Positions 4,098 to 58,906 of a stretch of 64,000 bases of DNA are shown here, in pieces. The notes under the pieces were generated by a model. It was not told the origin of the DNA, ran no database searches, and worked only from the letters and a program-made list of their open reading frames with translations. This stretch comes from Patescibacteria group bacterium (GTDB lineage: Bacteria; Patescibacteriota; Minisyncoccia; Moranbacterales; UBA2206). The position numbers were made by a program, and so were the translations under genes. Each line of letters opens with the position of its first letter. The stretch's first letter is position 1. The stretch lies in the NCBI GenBank assembly GCA_022711335.1, contig JAKLFF010000002.1:82988-146987 (forward strand), in the 5' to 3' direction.

Positions 4098-6275
4098 ATG
4101 ATACATTTGGATACCCCTCTTAAAAACATTTCTAAAATCACCCCTAAATACGCCAAAGTTTTGGAAAAAATGGGCCTCGTTACTGTCCAGGATTTTTTGT
4201 TGTATTTCCCTTTCCGCTATGATGATTTTTCAAAAACCGTGGAATTGGGTCAGAATTATCTGGGTGAAACTATAACGGTCGAAGGAACAATTATAAAAGC
4301 CAAGAATATCAGAATTTTCAGGCGAAAAATGACAATCACGGAAATTGTCATTCAAGATAAAAACAACACCCCGTTAAAAACAGTTTGGTTTAATCAGCCC
4401 TATATTTTAGAAAATTTAAAAGAGGGCGAGTCAATCAGATTGTCCGGAAAATTGGCAATCGATAAAAAGATTTTTTCCATGGCTAATCCCGCCTGGGAAA
4501 AAGCTTCGCGCGATGCGACCAATACTGGAAGACTGGTCCCAGTTTACAGCGAAACTGCCGGCATTTCTTCCAAGTGGATCCGCTGGCAGATAAAGCCGCT
4601 TCTTCGATTTGCCAAAGATATTCCGGATATTTTACCAGAAGAAACAAGAAAAAAATTTAATCTCTATGATCTCCGCACAGCCATAACCCAGATTCATTTT
4701 CCGGATTCCCGCGAAAAACTGGTACGTGCCCAAAAAAGAATGGCTTTTCAAGAAATGTTTTTGGTCCAGCTCAAATCTTTGCAAGTTAAAAAACAATGGG
4801 AGAAAAATAACTCTATTGATATCAAATTCGATGAGAAATTAATCAAGGAATTTGTAGAAAAACTTCCATTCAAATTGACTAACGCGCAAAGAAAAGCCTC
4901 TTTTGAAATTCTAAAAGACCTCGAAAAATCAAAGCCGATGAACCGGCTGCTTGAAGGCGACGTCGGATCGGGAAAAACAGTCGTCGCGGCTATCTCCACG
5001 CTACAATCTATCTCGGCAGGTTATCAAGTAGCCATTATGGCGCCGACAGAAGTCTTGGCGCGGCAGCACTTTGAAAGTTTTTGCAAGTTATTTGAGAATT
5101 ACGGAATAAACATAGCCCTGTTGACAAATTCTTACCAAGAGATTAACAATTTTCAATTTTCAATTTTCAATTTTCAATCAATTTTCAATGACAAAATTTT
5201 AAAAAATAAAAAAAATAGCAGAGAATATTTATTAAAAAGTACAGCAGATGGAAAAATAAATTTAATAGTAGGAACACATGCTCTTATTCAAAAAGACGTA
5301 AGATTCAAGAATTTGGCTTTAATTATTATCGACGAACAGCATCGCTTCGGAGTGGCGCAACGTGCAACTTTGCAACAAGAAACGATGAGTATAAAAGACC
5401 CCGTAAAGTCGCCTAACGGCGACCACGGGGCAAGCGGCGAGATTAAAACTATCTCCCATCTTCTCACTATGACTGCTACGCCTATCCCGAGAACTTTAGC
5501 CATCGCTTTTTTTGGCAGCCTGGGTCTTTCAATTCTTGACGAAATGCCTAAAAACCGAAAGCCGATTGTCACTAAAATTGTCCCGCCCTCTGCCAGAAAT
5601 CAAAATTATAATTTCATCCGGCAGGAAATTGGATCCGGACGGCAGGTTTTTGTCATTTTCCCGCTAATTGAAGAATCAAAGGCTCTCTCGGAAGTGAAAG
5701 CGGCCGCAGAAGAATATAAAAAACTGCAGGATATATTTCCGGATTTTGAAATCGGACTTTTGCATGGACGAATGAAGCCAAAAGAAAAAGAAGAAACTAT
5801 GCAATTTTTTAAAGAGCAAAAAACTAAAATCCTTGTTTCCACTTCTGTTATTGAAGTCGGCATTGATATCCCGAACGCCACAGTTATGATCATTGAAAAT
5901 GCCGAAAGATTCGGGCTTTCCCAGCTTCATCAATTCCGCGGCCGTGTTGGCCGGGGCGAGCATCAGTCGTATTGTTTCCTTTTCACTGAAAGTAACACTC
6001 AAAAATCCATTGAAAGACTAAAAGCCCTTGAAAAAACCAATGACGGATTCGAGATCTCCAAAATCGATCTGGAACTGCGCGGTCCCGGACAATTTTTCGG
6101 CACAATTCAATCCGGCCTTCCAGACATCACCATGGAGAATCTGAGCAATGTGAAACTCATTAAATTCGCCCGCGAGGAAGCCACTAATTTGTTAAAAGTT
6201 GACCCCCGACTAAAAAAGCACCCGCTTTTGGCAGATGCTCTTTTGAGATTTTCAGAGAAGATTCACTTGGAATGA
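4098..6275 (+). CDS. recG: ATP-dependent DNA helicase RecG
   Basis: Has a wedge/OB N-terminal region, helicase motif I GDVGSGKT, motif II DEQHRFG, TATPIPRT and the downstream RecG signature. It also carries two internal insertions (features 5147-5190 and 5399-5430). Confidence 0.9.
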   Translation: MIHLDTPLKNISKITPKYAKVLEKMGLVTVQDFLLYFPFRYDDFSKTVELGQNYLGETITVEGTIIKAKNIRIFRRKMTITEIVIQDKNNTPLKTVWFNQPYILENLKEGESIRLSGKLAIDKKIFSMANPAWEKASRDATNTGRLVPVYSETAGISSKWIRWQIKPLLRFAKDIPDILPEETRKKFNLYDLRTAITQIHFPDSREKLVRAQKRMAFQEMFLVQLKSLQVKKQWEKNNSIDIKFDEKLIKEFVEKLPFKLTNAQRKASFEILKDLEKSKPMNRLLEGDVGSGKTVVAAISTLQSISAGYQVAIMAPTEVLARQHFESFCKLFENYGINIALLTNSYQEINNFQFSIFNFQSIFNDKILKNKKNSREYLLKSTADGKINLIVGTHALIQKDVRFKNLALIIIDEQHRFGVAQRATLQQETMSIKDPVKSPNGDHGASGEIKTISHLLTMTATPIPRTLAIAFFGSLGLSILDEMPKNRKPIVTKIVPPSARNQNYNFIRQEIGSGRQVFVIFPLIEESKALSEVKAAAEEYKKLQDIFPDFEIGLLHGRMKPKEKEETMQFFKEQKTKILVSTSVIEVGIDIPNATVMIIENAERFGLSQLHQFRGRVGRGEHQSYCFLFTESNTQKSIERLKALEKTNDGFEISKIDLELRGPGQFFGTIQSGLPDITMENLSNVKLIKFAREEATNLLKVDPRLKKHPLLADALLRFSEKIHLE
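5147..5190. repeat. Microsatellite (AATTTTC)n of about 6 units inside the recG reading frame
   Basis: caattttcaattttcaattttcaattttcaatcaattttcaatg encodes NNFQFSIFNFQSIFN, in-frame between helicase motifs I and II. Confidence 0.8.
5399..5430. repeat. 32-bp palindromic element inserted in-frame in recG
   Basis: CCCCGTAAAGTCGCCTAACGGCGACCACGGGG encodes PVKSPNGDHGA. It reappears in reverse orientation at 36089-36121 as ccccgtggtcgccgttgaggcgactttacgggg. Confidence 0.75.
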
Positions 6276-7474
6276 TTCTCTATTGCTTTTTCATATACCA
6301 CCAGCATTTTTTTGGCGCAAACTGACGCCGTGAAATTTTCTCTGGCAATTCGCGCAGATTCTTCACCGGTTTTTTCCCTGAGTTTTTTATCCAAAATAAG
6401 TTTTGTGATCATATAGGCAAATTCCTTTTCTCCGGTTACGCAAGTCAGAAATCCGTTTCTGTTGTTTTGGACGAGACTAATCACGCCTGTCGCGCAGACA
6501 GCCACAACCGGAAGCCCCATATACATAGCCTCCGTAAGAACCATCCCTTGAGTTTCTGACTTAGAACCATAAACAAAAATATCTCCAGCCGCGTAGCAGT
6601 CTTTTATCTCCGATCTCGGAATTATTCCGGAAAAAACGACCTGCTCATAAATTCCATTGTCTTTGCAATATTTTTTAAGCTCCGGAAGGAGATATCCGTC
6701 TCCGGAAACCAAAAATTTCACATTTTTTCTTTCTTTGAGTATTTCCCTCACCGAGCGAAAAACAAATTCAATATTTTTTTCCGCCGTAAGCCGCGTTGCC
6801 AGGAACAAAAGAACTTCATTCTCTTTTATTCCATATTTATCACGAGCTTTTTTCCTGTCGGGATTTTTGAATTCTTCCTCGATTACTCCGGTAGGCACCA
6901 CATAGATTTCTTTTTTCACCCTGTTAAATACGCCTTCGGCGTCCCCGCCTTGCGGGGATTTAACAGGATGAACTCCCCAATTTTTGAGAATCGGAATGAC
7001 TGAATCTGTGGGAACCACGACCGCATCCGCCTGATTGGCAAATTTAACTGCTTTCTTGATCATATAGCCGGCAACAAATTTTTTTGGCAGAAACGGAACA
7101 AAATTCGCATAATAATCATAAAGAGTGTGCCAGGTAAAGACCAGCGGAACTTTTTTCCTTTTTGCCCACTTTCGGGCCGCTGATCCTAGAAGATTTGGAT
7201 GCTGGGAGTGGATTACATCGATTTTCAATTCGTTTAAAATTTTGCTAATTTTCCTCGAATATGGAATAACCAAAGGAAATTTTATTTTTATTTCAAGATT
7301 AATGGATGGGTAGCGGAAAATATTCGGATCTTTATCTGCATAGCCCGGAAAGTGCGGCGCGAAAATATATACAGTATGGCCAAGTTTTTCAAATTCCCTC
7401 CGAAAAGTTTCAATTGATGTCGAAACGCCATAGGGATTAGGAAGATAATTGTTCGTAAAAATTGCAATATTCAC
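6263..7474 (-). CDS. Glycosyltransferase family 4 (GT-B fold)
   Basis: Has the N-terminal IAIFTNNYLPNPYGVSTS motif and a C-terminal EXXXXXXXE-like region typical of GT4. The start is ambiguous. The ORF track uses TTG at 7507, but I favour GTG at 7474, which gives MNIAIF and directly abuts the element terminus. Confidence 0.75.
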   Translation of the reverse strand: MNIAIFTNNYLPNPYGVSTSIETFRREFEKLGHTVYIFAPHFPGYADKDPNIFRYPSINLEIKIKFPLVIPYSRKISKILNELKIDVIHSQHPNLLGSAARKWAKRKKVPLVFTWHTLYDYYANFVPFLPKKFVAGYMIKKAVKFANQADAVVVPTDSVIPILKNWGVHPVKSPQGGDAEGVFNRVKKEIYVVPTGVIEEEFKNPDRKKARDKYGIKENEVLLFLATRLTAEKNIEFVFRSVREILKERKNVKFLVSGDGYLLPELKKYCKDNGIYEQVVFSGIIPRSEIKDCYAAGDIFVYGSKSETQGMVLTEAMYMGLPVVAVCATGVISLVQNNRNGFLTCVTGEKEFAYMITKLILDKKLREKTGEESARIARENFTASVCAKKMLVVYEKAIENHSK

Positions 7475-7604
7475 CCGGTAGTGAAATTTTGACTGGCCTT
7501 CCGTCAATAAAGCATAGATGGCTCAGAAAAAATTTTATTAAAAATTATTCTAAATAAAAATTTTTGTAACCCGGGTTCTTTAATGTCAAAATTCTACTAC
7601 CGGG
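7474..7604. mobile_element. Inverted-repeat (MITE-like) element copy 1, 131 bp with 20-bp terminal inverted repeats and a 4-bp target duplication TTCA
   Basis: The left end is cccggtagtgaaattttgac at 7474-7493 and the right end is gtcaaaattctactaccggg at 7585-7604. ttca at 7470-7473 is repeated at 7605-8608 region start, namely 7605-7608. The interior is AT-rich. The glycosyltransferase GTG start overlaps the element terminus. Confidence 0.7.
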
Positions 7605-7611
7605 TTCATAA

Positions 7612-10395: not shown

Positions 10396-10468
10396 ATTCC
10401 CGCGAAGGCAGGAATCTAGTGTGGTATTTTAGCTTATTTTCTGGATTCCCGGTCAAGCCGGGAATGAC
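10396..10468. repeat. Degenerate copy of the double-hairpin palindromic element seen downstream of trpS
   Basis: attcccgcgaaggcaggaatctag ... ctggattcccggtcaagccgggaatgac, compared with gtcattcccgcgaaagcgggaatcca ... tagattcccgctttcgcgggaatgac at 49559-49635. Confidence 0.55.
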
Positions 10469-39284: not shown

Positions 39285-41408
39285 TTATTTTATTTGCAAC
39301 TTCCTCAGCTCCCCTATTTCATCCCGAATTATCGCCGCTTTTTCAAATTCCAGATTTCTGACTGCGTCTTTCATTTCTTTTTCCTTCTGTTTCACATATC
39401 CCGCAATATCTTCCAATGATTCCAGCTCCGAAAAATCCCGGATCACCTGCGGATTGATTTCATGATCTACAATAGACTGGATTTTCTTTTTGATGGTCTT
39501 GGGAGTAATATGATTCTTTCTATTATATTCCATCTGCAGCTTTCTTCTTCTTTCAGTTTCCGCAATCGCCCGCTTCATAGAACCGGTAATTTCATCGGCG
39601 TATAAAATTACTTTCCCGCTGACATTTCGAGCTGCCCGCCCGATGGTTTGAATAAGTGATGTTTCGCTTCGTAAAAATCCTTCCTTATCAGCATCAAGTA
39701 TGGCAACTAGCGACACTTCCGGAAGATCCAGTCCTTCGCGAAGCAGATTCACTCCGACCAAAACATCAAACTCTCCTCGCCGCAATTTTTCTAATATTCT
39801 AATCCGATCTAGCGTGTCCACCCCGCTGTGCAGATATTCCGCCTTGATTTTCGACTCTTTTAAGAAATCAGAAAGGTCTTCAGCCATTTTTTTAGTGAGC
39901 GTGGTTATCAGCACTCTTTCTTTCTTTTTCATTACTTCCTTAATTTCTTCCGTCACGTCCTTTACTTGTCCACGAGTCGGCTTGATTTCCAGTTCCGGAT
40001 CAATGAGTCCTGTAGGACGAATAATCTGTTCGACTACATTATTCCCCTTCTCCCTCCGGGAGAAGGTGGCCCGCTTAGCGAGACGGATGAGGGAGGAGTT
40101 CTGTGTTTTATCCCTCTCCTTCCCTTCGGGCATCCTCTCCCTAAGGGAGAGGAGGATTTTTTTAGATTTTTCCAATTCATACTTCCCGGGAGTCGCCGAT
40201 GTAAAAACTACTTGATTTATCTTCTGCTCAAATTCACTAAATTTGAGGGGACGATTGTCATAAGCTGAAGGAAGCCTAAAGCCATTGTCTATAAGAGCTG
40301 TTTTCCGAGCATGATCTCCATTATACATTCCATTTAACTGCGGAATAGTTACATGCGACTCATCTATTACTATTAGAAAGTCCTCCGAAAAATAGTCGAT
40401 AAGAGCATACGGCGGTTCGCCTTTTTTTCTGTCAGTTAAATATAAAGAGTAATTTTCAATTCCATTACAATATCCGATTTCGCGCATCATCTCCAGATCT
40501 TGCCTGGTTCTTCTAGAAAGTCTCTCGGCTTCCAAAATTTTATTGTTATCCTGCAAATATTTGAGCTGTTCTTCCAATTCATTCTCTATTTTCTTAAGCG
40601 CTTCTTCCATCACCGGTTCCGGCACCACGAAATGCTTGGCCGGATAAATCAAAGTTTTTTCCAGCTTTCCCAGCTCTTCGCCTGTCAGAAAATCATACTC
40701 TTGGATTTTAATAATCCTATCTCCTTCAATATTTATTCTAGTCACCACTTCTCTGCCTGGAGTCATAATTTCTAAAGTGTTTCCAGTGAAACGGAATTTT
40801 CCGCGGCTTAATAAATCGCTCCGGTTGTATTGCATGTCAATCAATCTTTTTATCGTCTTTTCACGATCAAATCCTAAGGCGAGGCCTTTGGATTCCAAAG
40901 GCCTCGCCTTAGGATTGACTTTTAATTCCAGCGCGATATCCCGATAATATTCCGGCGATCCCAAGCCATAGATGCAAGAAACTGAAGCGCAGATGATTAC
41001 ATCCCGGCGCGAAAGTAATGCCGCCGTGGAAGCATGGCGCAACCGGTCAATTTCTTCATTAATCTGGGCTTCTTTTTCAATGTAAGTATCAGTTGAAGCA
41101 ATGTAGGCTTCCGGCTGATAATAGTCATAATAAGAAACAAAATACTCCACGGCGTTTTTTGGGAAAAAAGTGCGAAACTCCTGAGCCAGCTGCGCCGCGA
41201 GAGTCTTGTTGGGTGCGATTACCAAAGTCGGTTTTTGCACCTTTTCAATCACATTGGCAATGGTAAAAGTCTTTCCTGACCCTGTCACGCCCAAAAGCGT
41301 CTGAAATTTCTGTCCGGACCGAAGACCTTCCGCCAGTTTTAAAATAGCCTGCGGTTGGTCGCCTTCAGGCTTAAATTTTGAATTTATTTTAAATTTATTA
41401 ACATTCAT
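39285..41408 (-). CDS. uvrB: Excinuclease ABC subunit B (UvrB) with an in-frame insert of about 40 aa
   Basis: Has Walker [11 protein letters not shown], helicase motifs, the UvrB beta-hairpin region and the C-terminal UVR domain. The insert [42 protein letters not shown] lies between SATPG...ELE and [10 protein letters not shown]. Confidence 0.9.
40044..40156. repeat. Hairpin element G, copy 1 (about 113 bp), in-frame inside uvrB
   Basis: ccccttctccctccgggagaaggtggcccgcttagcgagacggatgagggaggag...cctctccctaagggagaggagg shares about 50 nt with 39228-39279. Confidence 0.7.
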
Positions 41409-41419
41409 AACACGGATTT

Positions 41420-42460
41420 TTATAAATACTTGTCTAGCTTTTTAATCTTCATCTCCTTCACAAGCTCTGAAATCCGCACCACATTGTCTTTATGCACCAC
41501 TACAATCGCATCTTCGGTGTTGACTACCACCATGCCCTTAAGATCAACAGTGGCCACCACTTTTTTATTTTCCAGATTATAAATCAAACTATCTGTTGTT
41601 CCTAGATTATATACATTTCCTTTGGTCACATTTCCTTCGCTGGATTCTTCAAGGGCTTCCTTGAGCGCATAAAGCGTTCCCGGATCGCTCCAGCCCATAT
41701 TGGTTTTAAGAATAACCGCGTTTTTGAGATCTACTTTTTCAATAATCGCATTGTCAAAAGAAAGTTTGGGGCACTTATCATATCTTCCGGCCGTTACACA
41801 GTTCCAAATTTCCGGTGCCAGTTTTTTGTAACAACTTGTAATAAATTCCAAAGAAGTAATAAAATAACCGGGATTCCAGAAATAGTCACCTGATTTGAAC
41901 ATTTTGTCACAAAGCGCTTTTTTTGGCTTATATTTCCAGCCTTTGAATTTGAAATATTCCTGTTTATTTATTTCCCCGGCTTTTTCCCCGACATGAATCC
42001 AGCCCAGGTTGTTATTGGCAAACCGGGGACGTTCGGCCATGAAAATAAACAGACGAGAATCTTTTTCAATCAGTTTTTTTCCCATTTTAAGTCCATCTCG
42101 AAATTCACTAACACGATCCATTAAATGGTCCGCCCAGACAATCGCCACTGGGCCAGAGTATTTCATTTTGTTCAACTTATTCACTGCAAAACAGACTGCC
42201 GGGCCAACATCCCGCCGGGCCGGTTCTATAAAAATATTTTTTGGGAGAAGTTTCGGCAACTGCTTCTGGATAATTTTCTGATATAATTTCGTAGTCTGGA
42301 TGTATATATTTTCAGATCCGAAGGCTGGTGCCACCCGGTCCCAAGCCAACTGGATTGTAGATTTTCCGTTAAATATCTGGTCAAATTGCTTGGGCGAATT
42401 TTCCCTTGATAATGGCCACATCCTGGTTCCGATTCCGCCTGCAAATATAACTACTTTCAT
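41420..42460 (-). CDS. Mannose-1-phosphate guanylyltransferase (GDP-mannose pyrophosphorylase)-like nucleotidyltransferase
   Basis: Has the N-terminal [23 protein letters not shown] nucleotidyl-transferase signature and a C-terminal left-handed beta-helix-like region. Confidence 0.75.
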
Positions 42461-47731: not shown

Positions 47732-48085
47732 TTATGTTATTCTCCGAAAAGTTATCTTATAAACCGGCTCGTAGGAATTGTCATATTGGTCTTTGACGGC
47801 CACCGTTTTTCCGTCCATAAGCGTGCTCATGGCGACATCCGTTATCATCTCGTTCAGTTCCTTGGCTCTGGCCTTCAGTTTTTCAAATTCATCCCATCTT
47901 CCGCCCATTCTTGACTGGGTTATGCTTTCGATTTGCTTCTTTTTTTCTTTTAACTCTTTAAGTTTTTCTTCAGTTTCTGGAAACTCGTTGGCATTGCCCA
48001 GCGCGTCTTTATATTCCTTTCTTATTTCCTTTTGCTGCTTTTTATTTTCTTCGAGTTCGCTATAAATCTCCTGGATGTCTCGCAT
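47732..48085 (-). CDS. Hypothetical coiled-coil protein of 117 aa
   Basis: K/E-rich with no recognisable domain. Its ATG lies inside the 4-bp target duplication of inverted-repeat element copy 2. Confidence 0.5.
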   Translation of the reverse strand: MRDIQEIYSELEENKKQQKEIRKEYKDALGNANEFPETEEKLKELKEKKKQIESITQSRMGGRWDEFEKLKARAKELNEMITDVAMSTLMDGKTVAVKDQYDNSYEPVYKITFRRIT

Positions 48086-48087
48086 AC

Positions 48088-48214
48088 CCGGTAGTAGAAT
48101 TTTGACTTTTGAATATAAAAATCAAAATCCCATGTTATTATTTAATTAATTATTTTTAACCACGTTTAACCTCAAAACACTGACTCCCGGATCAGTCAAA
48201 ATTCTACTACCGGG
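48088..48214. mobile_element. Inverted-repeat (MITE-like) element copy 2, 127 bp with perfect 20-bp terminal inverted repeats and target duplication CATA
   Basis: cccggtagtagaattttgac ... gtcaaaattctactaccggg. cata lies immediately outside both ends; on the minus strand it reads TATG and supplies the start codon of the gene at 47732-48085. Confidence 0.7.
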
Positions 48215-48363
48215 CATAATCTAAATTTTAAAAAATTAAAATATAGCCGGATCGGCTACAGAAATATTTTAGCATGAATTTAAAATGTAGGGAACGCATA
48301 TATGCGTTCCCTGATACTTGATACTTGATACTTTATGCCCATTACTTTATACTAAAACCATGA

Positions 48364-48504
48364 CCCGGTAGTGAAATTTTGACTGGCTTTTCTACAGAAA
48401 AGCCAACAACCGGGCTAATGTTTTTTTGCAAAAAATAATTATTTTGTGCATAAATAAAAATTTTGGCTTTTATAAGCAATAGATGTCAAAATTCTACTAC
48501 CGGG
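48364..48504. mobile_element. Inverted-repeat (MITE-like) element copy 3, 141 bp with 20-bp terminal inverted repeats and target duplication ATGA
   Basis: cccggtagtgaaattttgac(tggc) ... gtcaaaattctactaccggg. atga at 48360-48363 is repeated at 48505-48508, and the right-hand copy is the trpS ATG. Confidence 0.72.
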
Positions 48505-49506
48505 ATGAGCAAACAGCGCATCTTTTCCGGCGTTGCGCCGTCCGGAAACATACATATAGGCAACTATCTTGGAGCCATTAAAAACTGGGTTAAGCTTCAA
48601 GACGAATGCGACTCTATTTTTTGCGTGGTTGATATGCATGCTATTACCCTGCCAAGAGATCCGGAGGAGCTTAGAAAAAAAACTATCGAAGTAGCTAAAA
48701 TTTATCTGGCTAGCGGAATCGACTTAGAAAAATCGACTTTATTTATACAATCTCATATACCCGAACACGCGGAATTATCCTGGATATTAAACACAATCGC
48801 CCGAACCGGCGAAATGTCCCGCATGACCCAATTCAAGGATAAAGCTGAACTTCACAGTGGAAATAGCAGCACCATGGAAAGTGTGCCGCTTGGAATATTT
48901 AATTATCCGGTATTAATGGCCGCTGATATTTTACTCTACGACACGCAAGTGGTTCCTGTCGGAAAAGACCAGCTGCAGCATATTGAAATTACCAGAACCC
49001 TGGCTAATAGATTTAACAAAAGATTCGGCAATACCTTTATTGTTCCTGAACCTTATATCACAAAAGAAGGAGCTAATATCATGGGCCTCGACGATCCAAC
49101 TAAGAAAATGTCAAAATCCGCTAAATCTGACTACAATTACATTGCTCTTAATGACTCCGAAGAAGATGTCCGGAGAAAAATCAAAAAAGCTGTCACTGAC
49201 AGCGGATCGGAAATAGTTTATAGAGATGATAAACCGGCGCTGATGAATCTGATTAATATTTATTCCCTACTCTCAGATAAACCCGCCAAAGAGATTGAAA
49301 AACAATATAAAGGTAAAGGCTACGCTGAATTCAAAACAGATTTAGCTGAAGTTATTATAAAATTTATGAATCCTTTTCAGGAAAAAATGAATGATCTTTC
49401 GGATGAAAAAGTTCTTGAAATCCTTCGCGAAGGCGCCGAAAAAGTCCGCCCGATCGCCAAAAATAAGCTTGATGAAGTCAAAAAAAAAATCGGCTTTGTA
49501 TTGTAA
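48505..49506 (+). CDS. trpS: Tryptophan--tRNA ligase
   Basis: MSKQRIFSGVAPSGNIHIGNYLGA has the HIGH-class motif and KKMSKSAKS is the KMSKS motif. The start was chosen at the ATG abutting the element; the ORF-track TTG at 48463 reads through the element. Confidence 0.9.
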   Translation: MSKQRIFSGVAPSGNIHIGNYLGAIKNWVKLQDECDSIFCVVDMHAITLPRDPEELRKKTIEVAKIYLASGIDLEKSTLFIQSHIPEHAELSWILNTIARTGEMSRMTQFKDKAELHSGNSSTMESVPLGIFNYPVLMAADILLYDTQVVPVGKDQLQHIEITRTLANRFNKRFGNTFIVPEPYITKEGANIMGLDDPTKKMSKSAKSDYNYIALNDSEEDVRRKIKKAVTDSGSEIVYRDDKPALMNLINIYSLLSDKPAKEIEKQYKGKGYAEFKTDLAEVIIKFMNPFQEKMNDLSDEKVLEILREGAEKVRPIAKNKLDEVKKKIGFVL

Positions 49507-49558: not shown

Positions 49559-49635
49559 GTCATTCCCGCGAAAGCGGGAATCCAGTGGATAAGCTGTAAA
49601 ATTTAAGGCTAGATTCCCGCTTTCGCGGGAATGAC
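49559..49635. repeat. 77-bp double-hairpin palindromic element downstream of trpS
   Basis: gtcattcccgcgaaagcgggaatc ... gattcccgctttcgcgggaatgac has perfect 24-bp inverted arms, and each arm contains its own palindrome TCCCGC-GAAA-GCGGGA. Confidence 0.7.
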
Positions 49636-55724: not shown

Positions 55725-56192
55725 ATGAAATACGAAATTTTTTATCTGATCGGCGGCACGCGAGAAGCTGACGCGGAAAAAATAAGGAAAGAAGTTTCTG
55801 AAATAATCGCCGGAGCAGGAGGAGTTTTTGAAGAAAAGGAAACTTTAGAAAAAAGAAAGCTTTCCTACAAGATCAAGCACGAGACTCACGGCATCTATAT
55901 CGCCCAAAGGTTTGAGCTGGAAGATAATCAAAAGATTGGCGACATAGTGGGAAAGATGAATCTTAATCATGAAGTTTTACGATTCATCTTAAGCCGGGCT
56001 TCGGAACTTCCGCCCCTCAAGTCGAAAGAAGAAAGGATAGCCGATCAGGAAAAAAGATCAGCTCCGGCTGAAAGAAAAAAGGAAGAAAAAAAACCGATTG
56101 TCCCTGAGGTGAAAAAACCGATAGAGCAAAAATCTGCAGATGTAAATAAGGAAGACATTGACAAAAAATTGGAAGAAATACTTAACATATAA
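55725..56192 (+). CDS. rpsF: 30S ribosomal protein S6 with a K/E-rich C-terminal extension
   Basis: MKYEIFYLIGGTREADAEKIRKEVSEII...GIYIAQRFELEDN is the S6 fold. Confidence 0.85.
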   Translation: MKYEIFYLIGGTREADAEKIRKEVSEIIAGAGGVFEEKETLEKRKLSYKIKHETHGIYIAQRFELEDNQKIGDIVGKMNLNHEVLRFILSRASELPPLKSKEERIADQEKRSAPAERKKEEKKPIVPEVKKPIEQKSADVNKEDIDKKLEEILNI

Positions 56193-56261
56193 CATATAAC
56201 ATGCAACATAAGCAGAAATATTTTGCTCCATGTTCCATGTTTCATGTTTCATGAATTTATG
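56193..56261 (+). promoter_or_regulatory. Triplicated intergenic leader motif, copy 1 (rpsF-ssb spacer)
   Basis: catataacatgcaacata...ttccatgtttcatgtttcatgaattt, then ATG. Confidence 0.5.
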
Positions 56262-58329: not shown

Positions 58330-58810
58330 GGGGATGTTTTGGTTTCGACAGGTTGTACATTTAAAATAGGCAAGCCGAGCTCGATAGCGCCTCGTTAAAC
58401 CGCTGTCAAAATTACAAGTGCAAACTTCGTAACAAAAGCAAAGAATGCGATTGCGCAAGCTTTCAGCACCAACTTTGCCTACGCTTTAGCCTAATTTTTT
58501 AGGCTTTAGCCATCGAACCGCTGATTTCTAATAAGCGAACTTCGGTGCCAACTATTAGAATAGCGCGTATTGCATTTCCTTGGCAATATGCGTAAAATTT
58601 ACCCCCCACCACTTATTGCTAATTATAAAATAGGAATCTATAATAATAACAAAATAACGGCGGGTTATAAGTGGTGGGGGGTGAACATAGGAATAAATCA
58701 AAGTAATTTTTCTTATTTCTATCTTTGATCGAAAACAATAAATAAGATAAGCTTGTAGATTGTTTTGAATGAATAATTTTGGACGCGAGTTCGATTCTCG
58801 CCATCTCCAC
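58330..58810 (+). ncRNA. ssrA: tmRNA (ssrA), encoded directly downstream of smpB
   Basis: The 5' end GGGGATGTTTTGGTTTCGACAGG pairs with the 3' end GGACGCGAGTTCGATTCTCGCCATCTCCACC to form a tRNA-like acceptor and T-arm. The internal tag frame GCAAACTTCGTAACAAAAGCAAAGAATGCGATTGCGCAAGCTTTCAGCACCAACTTTGCCTACGCTTTAGCCTAA encodes ...NFAYALA and a stop. Pseudoknot-like ccccccaccac / gtggtggggg pairing is present. Confidence 0.7.
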
Positions 58811-58811
58811 C

Positions 58812-58906
58812 GCGTAAAATGAAATTTTTTTGAAAAAAATTTCATCACGCGGTAGGCACGTGGTGAAAAAAATTTAAAGATTTTTTTCACTTTACGTGCC
58901 ACCGTA
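58812..58906 (+). terminator. Two consecutive hairpins after tmRNA
   Basis: cgcgtaaaatgaaattttttt / gaaaaaaatttcatcacgcg, and ggcacgtggtgaaaaaaa...tttttttcactttacgtgcc. Confidence 0.45.

Follow-up and report, generated by a model that had tools for sequence, protein, structure and literature searches.

Start-codon-duplicating miniature elements in Patescibacteria and their probable relationship to a full-length cassette encoding a GIY-YIG nuclease

The 64,000-nt stretch of DNA analysed here (the window; positions 82,988 to 146,987 of the forward strand of contig JAKLFF010000002.1, assembly GCA_022711335.1, from a Patescibacteria group bacterium) contains three short copies of a mobile element with terminal repeats, the insertion of which creates a 3–4-bp duplication with a start codon, or the first bases of a -35 promoter box, at its centre. 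At both favoured sites the element enters the 5' edge of an expression signal, and the duplication restores that signal. The three copies are probably non-autonomous members, resembling miniature inverted-repeat transposable elements (MITEs), of a Patescibacteria-wide family with terminal inverted repeats whose full-length form is a cassette of ~340 bp encoding a GIY-YIG nuclease. Labels of the form Lnnn denote public loci fetched for comparison.

The pattern CCCGGTAGTRRAATTTTGAC gave six matches in the window with no mismatches, as compared to 0.03 expected from shuffled sequences, none of 100 shuffles reaching six. These occurrences of a 20-mer arm of the form CCCGGTAGT(GA/AG)AATTTTGAC make up three inverted pairs delimiting elements of ~130 bp each at 7474-7604, 48087-48214 and 48364-48504. 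Perfect 4-bp direct repeats, read directly from the sequence as TTCA, CATA and ATGA, bound all three copies, and in all three the target duplication overlaps a start codon (trpS ATG at 48505, the ATG of a 117-aa protein gene at 48085-48083, and that of a glycosyltransferase gene). A preliminary description of the window had reported three elements of 127–141 bp with shared 20-bp terminal inverted repeats and 4-bp flanking repeats at start codons; this is confirmed here except that copy 2 begins at 48087 instead of 48088, giving 128 bp. The host genes and the parts of each copy are as follows.

6263-7474, minus strand: host gene 1, a GT4-family glycosyltransferase (Pfam Glyco_transf_4 / Glycos_transf_1) starting at GTG
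7470-7473: gene-proximal target duplication of copy 1, TTCA (TGAA on the gene strand), with the identical 4-mer at 7605-7608
7474-7493, plus strand: terminal inverted repeat of copy 1, GA variant CCCGGTAGTGAAATTTTGAC
7494-7584: interior of copy 1, AT-rich, with CCCGGG at 7571-7576
7585-7604, minus strand: terminal inverted repeat of copy 1, AG variant
7605-7609, minus strand: distal duplication of copy 1 (7605-7608) and the original glycosyltransferase ATG (7609-7607)
47732-48085, minus strand: host gene 2, encoding the 117-aa protein, with no Pfam match
48083-48086: duplication of copy 2, CATA (TATG on the gene strand), holding the host ATG 48085-48083 on the minus strand
48087-48214: copy 2, 128 bp, with arms at 48087-48106 (plus strand) and 48195-48214 (minus strand), both of the AG variant
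48215-48218: distal duplication of copy 2, in which the ATG 48217-48215 (minus strand) opens a 23-codon open reading frame (ORF), MPGSRILT..., into the element
48360-48363, plus strand: upstream duplication of copy 3, ATGA, the ATG of which now opens a mini-ORF, MTR and stop
48364-48383, plus strand: left arm of copy 3, GA variant
48384-48405, plus strand: arm-adjacent hairpin of copy 3, TGGCTTTTC-TACA-GAAAAGCCA, -11.7 kcal/mol
48407-48415, plus strand: internal motif of copy 3, CAACCGGGC, like the outer end of the right arm; the family form is CnGGGC(A)
48485-48504, minus strand: right arm of copy 3, AG variant, abutting the trpS ATG
48505-49506, plus strand: host gene 3, trpS (Pfam tRNA-synt_1b), whose first four bases, ATGA, are the downstream duplication

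When each element was removed in silico together with one repeat, a simple gene start was obtained in every case: ...TAAttATGAATATTGCA for the glycosyltransferase (minus strand), ...ttagattATGCGAGAC for the 117-aa protein (minus strand) and ...aaaaccATGAGCAAA for trpS. Copy 1 lies in the orientation, relative to its host gene, of the inverted minority of the family, and its duplication TGAA begins one base into the original ATG. That ATG, upstream of the element, now opens a 7-codon ORF (MNPVVEF and stop) into the element; on the minus strand, the last G of the GA arm is the G of a new GTG start (7474-7472) for an ORF of 403 codons, and the glycosyltransferase is called as 403 aa in assembly GCA_035453105.1, which matches the window. 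The arms of copy 2 form a perfect 20-bp inverted repeat, and the trpS locus is identical on 19 contigs. The ORFs in the three copies are only 3–23 codons long. Mechanical ORF calling extends both trpS (48463-49506, TTG at 48463, 347 aa) and the glycosyltransferase (6263-7507, TTG at 7507, 414 aa) into the elements, so that automated annotation is prone to wrong N-termini at such loci.

The analysis was extended to public contigs with an arm scan of species-representative genomes (35 loci) and a looser arm pattern without ATG in metagenomes (at least 120 loci). Arms were paired by complementarity and elements oriented by the longest ORF starting at the junction; family counts and statistics given here are among the matches listed in these genome and metagenome scans. 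A total of 99 non-redundant paired elements was obtained, 98 of which had usable flanks, with size classes of 64–88, 112–159 and 231–385 bp. Nearly all of the 98 were on Patescibacteria-type contigs. Perfect 4-mer duplications were present in 66 of the 98 copies and a 3-bp flank overlap in ~14 more (~9 of these ATG); the flank pairs comprised TATG on both sides in 47 copies, ATGA in 4, TGAA in 2 and AATG in 1, along with ~9 cases of TATG followed by ATGN (a 3-bp ATG duplication). An ATG on both sides together with a downstream ORF was found in 66/98 copies and a downstream ORF opening with ATG or GTG in 74/98. Overall, ~75% of copies are placed between two (T)ATGs, the second of which opens a real gene. 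The GA arm was upstream relative to the gene in 57 copies and downstream in 9, and the host genes were unrelated to one another (trpS, uvrB, ssb, rpsL, glycosyltransferases and adk).

A broader phylum range (Deltaproteobacteria, cyanobacteria, Bacteroidia, gut contigs and viruses) was considered and rejected: the matches there were single arms, none with a partner arm, at about the chance frequency, itself a rough estimate for a pattern with 15–18 fixed bases. The only paired copies in metagenome-assembled genomes (MAGs) labelled as non-Patescibacteria were those of L009, L011 and L015, and the flanks of L009 match a Moraniibacteriota locus. The L015 copy (7146-7230) is an 85-bp pair with a perfect TAAG duplication beside a GC-rich terminator, in a MAG labelled Pseudomonadota and at a locus of 47% GC; either its contig is mis-binned or the element does occur, rarely, outside Patescibacteria. 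Another arm type, CCCGGTGGGACAACTTCGAA ... TTCAAAGTAGTACCACCGGG, was observed at L100:3751-3873 and L112:2613-2739, where it is stacked after a standard element that occupies the same start codon; the family thus extends beyond the pattern searched for.

The copies were strongly associated with gene starts. Specifically, 40 of the 47 TATG copies opened an ORF of at least 100 codons, as compared to 20% of all TATG sites (P=1.7e-21). When the comparison was restricted to non-genic TATG sites, with elements excised and genes called crudely (339 sites at start codons and 569 intergenic non-start sites), 43 of 47 insertions were at gene starts, as compared to 37% expected if all such sites were equal (P=1e-14). 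The start-codon preference, which the preliminary description had proposed as unusual, thus holds against either background. Targeted starts had a -10-like hexamer 5–8 nt upstream in 52% of cases, and untargeted starts on those contigs in 21% (odds ratio 4.1, P=4e-7); these controls are crude "first ATG" calls, which dilute the background. Shine-Dalgarno-like motifs were found at 0% of targeted and 6% of untargeted starts. In the window, genes mostly lack Shine-Dalgarno motifs and TAnAAT often occurs 5–7 nt ahead of the ATG. The missing Shine-Dalgarno sequence had earlier been ascribed to insertion of the element, an explanation that falls because such sequences are rare in this genome anyway. 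Judged from their sequence, the targeted genes look leaderless, with a -10 box ~6 nt before the ATG and no Shine-Dalgarno motif, so that the cassette would capture both promoter and start codon. The apparent link between target and initiation is a statistical one. At trpS, the following site is consistent with this arrangement.

48325-48353, plus strand: promoter-like site TTGATA-17-TATACT (10/12 matches), separated by 6 nt from the upstream ATG of copy 3

The position of this putative promoter predicts a leaderless trpS transcript before the insertion of copy 3. A threefold tandem heptamer-like repeat, GATACTT (48313-48335), overlaps the trpS -35 box, and CATGTTT/ACATATA runs (56190-56260) upstream of ssb are likewise short tandem heptamer-like repeats upstream of a promoter.

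In about 10% of copies the insertion lies on the TTGA of a -35 promoter hexamer, TTGA being the commonest exception to ATG targets. Eight of the nine copies with a TTGA duplication were on TTGAC(A)-N16-17-nAnnnT (-35/-10), as compared to 8.6% of all TTGA sites (P=2.5e-8). Of the other exceptions, some follow closely on terminators and some are intergenic. Elements of one sub-family, with arms CCCCGTAGTGAATTTTCGGC, always have TTGA flanks and occupy the initial four bases of -35 hexamers (TTGACA-N17-TATAAT), with no orientation bias relative to the promoter (~5 vs 4); members of this sub-family are at L014:3775-3844 and 4392-4528, L024:1342-1414, L025:3958-4030 and 6948-7082, and L065:682-753.

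The same figures bear on an explanation without targeting, in which the element has a preference for TATG, or for a TG step in AT-rich DNA, and purifying selection leaves those insertions that rebuild a signal. A T at -1 (83% of reconstructed targets, 52% of other starts) is all that separates the targets from other, ordinary-looking gene starts, the cut register varies (TATG, ATGA, TGAA), TG is within most perfect duplications, and TGAA cases survive only since the terminal G recreates a GTG, which looks like a selective filter. We nevertheless consider this explanation unlikely, as the 569 non-start non-genic TATG sites receive only 4 of 47 insertions compared with the 339 start sites, the -35 class falls exactly on TTGA and not on equally harmless positions further upstream, and targeted starts are enriched for a correctly spaced -10 box.

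Mobility was assessed by comparing host proteins downstream of elements with all fetched DNA. Seven orthologous start-codon sets were filled in some genomes and empty in others, with the amino acid (aa) identities of the host proteins given below.

Filled in L107, empty at window position 42460 (minus strand): 82% aa identity
Filled in L014/L065 (uvrB), empty at window uvrB: 78% aa identity
Filled in L029 and L012, empty in L021: 88% aa identity
Filled in L121, empty in L033: 84% aa identity
Filled in L028, empty in L034: 75% aa identity
Filled in L157 (ssb), empty in L025 and the window: 65% and 57% aa identity
Filled in L078 (rpsL), empty in L018: 69% aa identity

Two of the empty target sites in the window have the following positions.

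42458-42460, minus strand: ATG of the NTP-transferase gene (41420-42460), the L107 orthologue of which carries a 130-bp element
41406-41408, minus strand: uvrB ATG, filled in L014/L065 and also in L144

Excision in silico of the L107 element with one ATG gave a sequence colinear with the empty site of the window on both sides. The trpS and uvrB start codons are occupied in several lineages by elements differing in size, and two stacked elements are found at L100 and L112 (TATG-element-TATG-element-TATG, then the gene), as expected if each insertion rebuilds its own target. The proposal of a family of non-autonomous transposable elements is therefore well founded, with 98 paired copies, flanking repeats and start association throughout the family, and empty sites at orthologous loci. 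Decayed arm remnants (e.g. cgaagttgttctactgggg) were also observed 20–60 nt upstream of empty-looking starts (L012:2035-2079 and L034:1286-1355), which suggests old, eroded insertions whose starts have gained a new leader.

These data also bear on two explanations without transposition. The first, a vertically inherited cis-regulatory leader (attenuator, thermosensor or processing site), would account for a long predicted stem ending exactly at the AUG and for the common UUCG or GAAA loops of the arm-adjacent hairpin, and could draw on the arms being 93–97% identical at start codons filled in two species when neighbouring third-codon positions are 37–75% identical. No conclusion on constraint was drawn from this last comparison, since the orthology of the shared insertions is uncertain: their junctions are not in one register, and copies from different loci resemble one another about as closely. 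As a sole explanation the leader is contradicted, and we regard it as very improbable, in view of the empty orthologous sites, the perfect target duplications, the same element before unrelated genes (trpS, uvrB, ssb, rpsL and glycosyltransferases), the occurrence of both orientations (57 vs 9) and tandem stacking, the copies at -35 boxes or after terminators, and the lack of an Rfam family. The second, an inverton in which a recombinase flips a promoter between inverted repeats, is hardly credible: inverted repeats do enclose an AT-rich segment directly upstream of genes including glycosyltransferases, and both orientations are found across loci, but nine independent trpS-locus assemblies show one orientation for both copies, the flanking direct repeats and empty sites are signatures of insertion, and the arms of full-length members enclose a nuclease ORF.

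The interiors of the miniatures, previously described as unrelated, have a common family layout which reads, from the GA arm, as arm, adjoining hairpin, CnGGGC(A) motif and AT-rich core. The outer 9 nt of the arm, CCCGGTAGT, are invariant, and inner positions 13, 14, 17, 19 and 20 vary between copies, with the two arms of one copy agreeing there in 93% or more of cases. Positions 10-11 are asymmetric (G/A, A/G) in 86/98 copies, which gives a G.U and an A.C pair in the middle of the stem, and symmetric (AC/AC) in full-length copies. The arm-adjacent hairpin differs in sequence from copy to copy, its loop is often UUCG or GAAA, and its mean minimum free energy is -5.9 kcal/mol, as compared to -3.2 for shuffled sequences and -2.2 at the opposite end; the CnGGGC(A) motif resembles the outer end of the right arm. 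Between arms, 92.7% of cells were paired (85.6% when shuffled), and changes on both sides occurred in 8 of 20 pairs, with 80 such cells against 24.5 expected (0/500 shuffles). When the window copies were folded as RNA, the arms were predicted to form one long stem ending at the host start codon (z=-5.8, -5.9 and -4.8), in agreement with the 20-bp stem put forward before. A search of Rfam gave no match at the gathering threshold, only sub-threshold hairpin-like matches to plant microRNA precursor models. An outward promoter in the element was considered and found no support: TTTTGnC (-35-like) with CAAAAT in the right arm fits some copies, the arms of ~40% of copies are GTCGAA, which abolishes the -10, and in leaderless position the hexamer (TCTACT/CTACTA) lacks the essential A at -11. 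An archaeal TATA-box or leaderless reading of the interiors was dropped, the window being bacterial (tmRNA, RecG and RNase J).

The full-length form was recognised from the frame opened by the upstream ATG, which in almost every copy runs into the GA-variant arm and reads MPGSEILT.... In a 345-bp copy at L017 that frame continues to give a 106-aa protein matching Pfam GIY-YIG (PF01541, E=3.6e-15), and full-length members of ~340 bp encode a nuclease of ~95-106 aa of the Slx1/UPF0213 type. Eight full-length loci (L017, L036, L132, L139 (decayed), L175, L176, L177 and L178) read (T)ATG, arm, GIY-YIG ORF, TAA, arm and (T)ATG followed by the host gene, with the stop 0–7 nt before the right arm; the L177 cassette is between secY and adk. 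About three quarters of the best 120 L017 homologues (75–115 aa) have the N-terminus MPGS/MPSS/MPGR-TTSN, and an MPGSTTSN-type peptide is the translation of ATG followed by CCCGGTAGTACAACTTCGAA, the left arm giving codons 2-8. Arm positions 3, 6 and 9 (C3, T6 and T9) are third-codon positions and are invariant, so that the peptide is conserved because the DNA is. The wider nuclease family comprised 3,806 clusters at E<=1e-10, with an arm-encoded N-terminus in a handful of the top 150 representatives; the arm-bearing cassettes are therefore one clade. The best sequence matches were to UPF0213 proteins and SLX1 (1zg2, E=6e-5; 1ywl, E=5e-4; SLX1, E=4e-3), and Foldseek on a model of the nuclease gave 1zg2 and Slx1 at 1.9–3.9 Å, with I-TevI and UvrC ranking lower and I-TevI well below Slx1; the arm-encoded N-terminal ~18 residues are of low confidence in the model, where they lie outside the fold. 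At L017 a full-length copy and a miniature with matching arm centres lie 1.5 kb apart. Full-length and window copies have the outer 9 nt, the layout and the target in common, and differ in inner arm sequence.

Other observations were made on these and related nucleases. Some full-length cassettes (L036:1524-1557, L176:883-939 and L178:623-655) hold tiny arms-only palindromes, CCCGGCGCTACAAC-CAA-GTTGTAGTAACCGGG, either immediately internal to the left arm or in the right arm itself; in the protein these show up as a variable insert, NPALQPSCSNRANK, after MPGSTTS. Related GIY-YIG genes were found in or beside tRNA-like sequence, with GGTTCGAATCC just downstream (L057:3797-4066, minus strand, and L160:2525-2770, plus strand; proteins P0200 and P0227). 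At L057 a direct repeat, GGTAGGACAT, lies on either side of them, and some of the predicted N-termini read like tRNA in translation; related nucleases may have another way of inserting.

Several points weigh against a family of mobile elements, with miniatures in the window, that is served by this nuclease. No GIY-YIG gene or signal was found in the 64-kb window, and the window arms (GTGAAATTTTGAC) differ from full-length arms (GTACAACTTCGAA) at five inner positions, so that mobilisation of the window copies in trans is an assumption. Full-length copies off ATG use an internal ATG (L164, and L074/L151 with the duplication TAAA, apparently one insertion on two contigs), and ~14 of the 98 copies are at neither an ATG nor a -35 box. 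Within the species of the window, no presence/absence polymorphism was seen on the 19, 1 and 21 contigs encoding identical TrpS, glycosyltransferase and NTP-transferase, respectively. Strand asymmetry of folding energy, as an indicator of a role in RNA or DNA, gave no signal (P=0.13 and 0.73), the co-variation of the arms could partly come from subfamily descent and not from a pairing requirement, and the crude control starts of the -10 comparison belong with these points. Lastly, a nuclease of ~95 aa with neither a DNA-binding nor a strand-transfer domain would be unprecedented as the sole transposition protein and could be a passenger.

If the nuclease were cargo, or an independent selfish gene with the same arms, the miniatures would be real but moved by a conventional transposase (e.g. 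DDE) encoded elsewhere. Such a situation would agree with the window having no GIY-YIG gene, with the unrelated cargo of two mid-sized copies, L080 (231 bp) and L100 (297 bp), and with the variable 3–4-bp duplications seen here, which are typical of DDE transposases of insertion sequence (IS) families; a 95-aa nuclease domain alone is also not known to have strand-transfer activity. It is made quite unlikely, in our view, by the gene content of the elements. No other protein was found between arms in ~0.9 Mb of fetched DNA, arm pairs spaced 400–6000 bp being two separate small elements, and no DDE, HUH, serine or tyrosine transposase gene was found between the repeats among arm pairs. Moreover, the arm serves as N-terminal coding sequence in ~75% of the best 120 homologues, which indicates long gene-arm co-evolution, and the stop codon abuts the right arm in independent members.

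Returning to the nuclease-encoding family, its mode of insertion is probably as follows. The cassette, having no start codon of its own, would be inserted at a 3–4-bp staggered cut centred on the host (T)ATG. The upstream ATG copy, under the mostly leaderless promoter of the host, would become the start codon of the nuclease, and the downstream copy, immediately beyond the right arm, would preserve the host ORF. A minority of copies have gone into the TTGA of a -35 hexamer, which the duplication likewise reconstitutes, and TGAA cases would survive through an element-derived GTG. The window copies have probably lost the nuclease gene and retain the arms, the arm-adjacent hairpin and the CnGGGC motif. 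It is somewhat probable that the Slx1-like nuclease is the cutting enzyme: it would recognise the invariant outer arm as part of a hairpin or cruciform, cleave both the target and the base of that structure, and act in trans on the miniatures. The balance tips slightly towards a target choice that depends on more than the 4-mer and reflects promoter or initiation architecture, such as the downstream fork of an open complex at the +1 of a leaderless gene; insertions by which the signal is not rebuilt would then be eliminated by selection. Transcription from the host promoters of the window would yield an AUG, the element, and a second AUG with the gene, so that the element would be the 5' part of the mRNA and the host AUG would be used directly after the 20-bp stem by Shine-Dalgarno-independent initiation. 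The stem may be neutral in this, be processed by RNase III or assist through a shunt or hop between the identical AUGs. A "sticky-end memory", by which an element would bring the target 4-mer with it from its donor site, was rejected, as the cut register varies (TATG, ATGA, TGAA and ATG) among ordinary copies. More tentatively, these elements could be a new class of prokaryotic transposon whose sole protein is an Slx1-like nuclease of ~95 aa, with ends cut at the base of a hairpin or cruciform, insertion at the leaderless +1 ATG (where the open-complex bubble has its downstream edge) or the 5' edge of a -35 box, the promoter and start codon of the host being parasitised in this way, and ribosomes shunting or hopping between the identical AUGs.

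The miniatures share with Correia elements (CREE/NEMIS) of Neisseria, and with MITEs, a size of ~100–160 bp, the lack of an ORF, terminal inverted repeats, a short duplication, many copies and a position adjacent to genes. Correia elements are co-transcribed with genes and their repeats fold as a long RNA hairpin that is a substrate of RNase III; the family has a characteristic 26-bp repeat, a TA duplication and a Neisseria host. The earlier comparison with them is fair as an analogy of working and does not extend to family membership, since repeat, duplication and host differ: the repeat sequence and the host phylum are unrelated, the duplication is 3–4 bp of ATG or TTGA and not TA, the target is a start codon or -35 edge and not a generic intergenic TA, and the elements described here have a conserved central G.U/A.C mismatch, an arm-adjacent hairpin and a full-length form encoding a GIY-YIG nuclease rather than a DDE transposase. 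GIY-YIG homing endonuclease genes (I-TevI, T4 seg) are likewise selfish units with a nuclease as the only product, located between or before conserved genes. However, homing endonucleases possess a long DNA-binding domain at the C terminus, enter the cognate allele by double-strand-break repair and lack inverted repeats and duplications, in contrast to the bare catalytic domain, 20-bp inverted repeats, duplications and many unrelated host genes of the cassette; the full-length proteins scored 18 bits against NCBIfam grpIintron_endo, the cut-off of which is 56. The best sequence and fold matches are to Slx1/UPF0213 (YhbQ-type) proteins. Slx1 cuts branched, flap and stem-loop DNA, which would suit element ends at the base of a hairpin or cruciform, but Slx1 and YhbQ are host repair-type proteins that, unlike the cassette, are not known as mobile or bounded by inverted repeats.

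Integration at an initiation landmark with survival of the host gene and no evident extended motif recalls Ty3 at RNA polymerase III start sites. Ty3 is a eukaryotic long terminal repeat retroelement whose integrase is tethered by TFIIIB, whereas the corresponding link to initiation here is of a statistical kind. In the T4 gene 60 bypass cassette (mobA and a 50-nt coding gap), ribosomes hop between internal GGA codons and a nascent-peptide signal is needed. The resemblance lies in a nuclease-associated insertion in a translated region, identical flanking codons and a hairpin for the ribosome to pass, but the identical codons here are AUG initiation codons and the likeness is one of sequence layout. 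In full-text searches of the literature, which covered some but not all journals, neither GIY-YIG cassettes bounded by repeats nor start-codon MITEs were found described, and the same holds for leaderless initiation in these lineages.

Other repeats and an RNA gene of the window were noted in passing. A different palindromic repeat, ATTCCCGC-GAAA-GCGGGAAT, has two adjacent copies downstream of trpS (49559-49635), the pair forming a 27-nt inverted repeat with 96% complementarity, and a third copy at 10396-10415 (3 matches, as compared to 0.33 expected); the same motif is found in L136. A perfect 23-nt palindrome, AATCCTAAGGCGAGGCCTTTGGA / TCCAAAGGCCTCGCCTTAGGATT, lies within the uvrB coding region (40870-40916). 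The tmRNA (58330-58812) is full-length in Rfam, with 483 nt for a 374-position model, and was not reported by ARAGORN; the gene may carry an insertion or an unusual domain.

The insertion of an element that rebuilds the signal it enters shows how a parasite can persist in extremely compact genomes while sparing essential genes such as trpS, uvrB, ssb, rpsL and adk. Should the GIY-YIG protein be the mobilising enzyme, a nuclease class would be added to the DDE, HUH, serine and tyrosine recombinases and Cas1, and the ~340-bp cassette would be the smallest autonomous DNA transposon described. The elements cause mis-annotation of start codons and the recurrent "MPGSTTSN" N-terminus in GIY-YIG annotations, they are useful as markers in the population genetics of Patescibacteria, and a nuclease or integration system that finds gene starts may be of interest for genome engineering. 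For the biology of these bacteria, the occupied genes provide a natural test bed for initiation without a Shine-Dalgarno sequence and, after insertion, without a 5'-terminal AUG.

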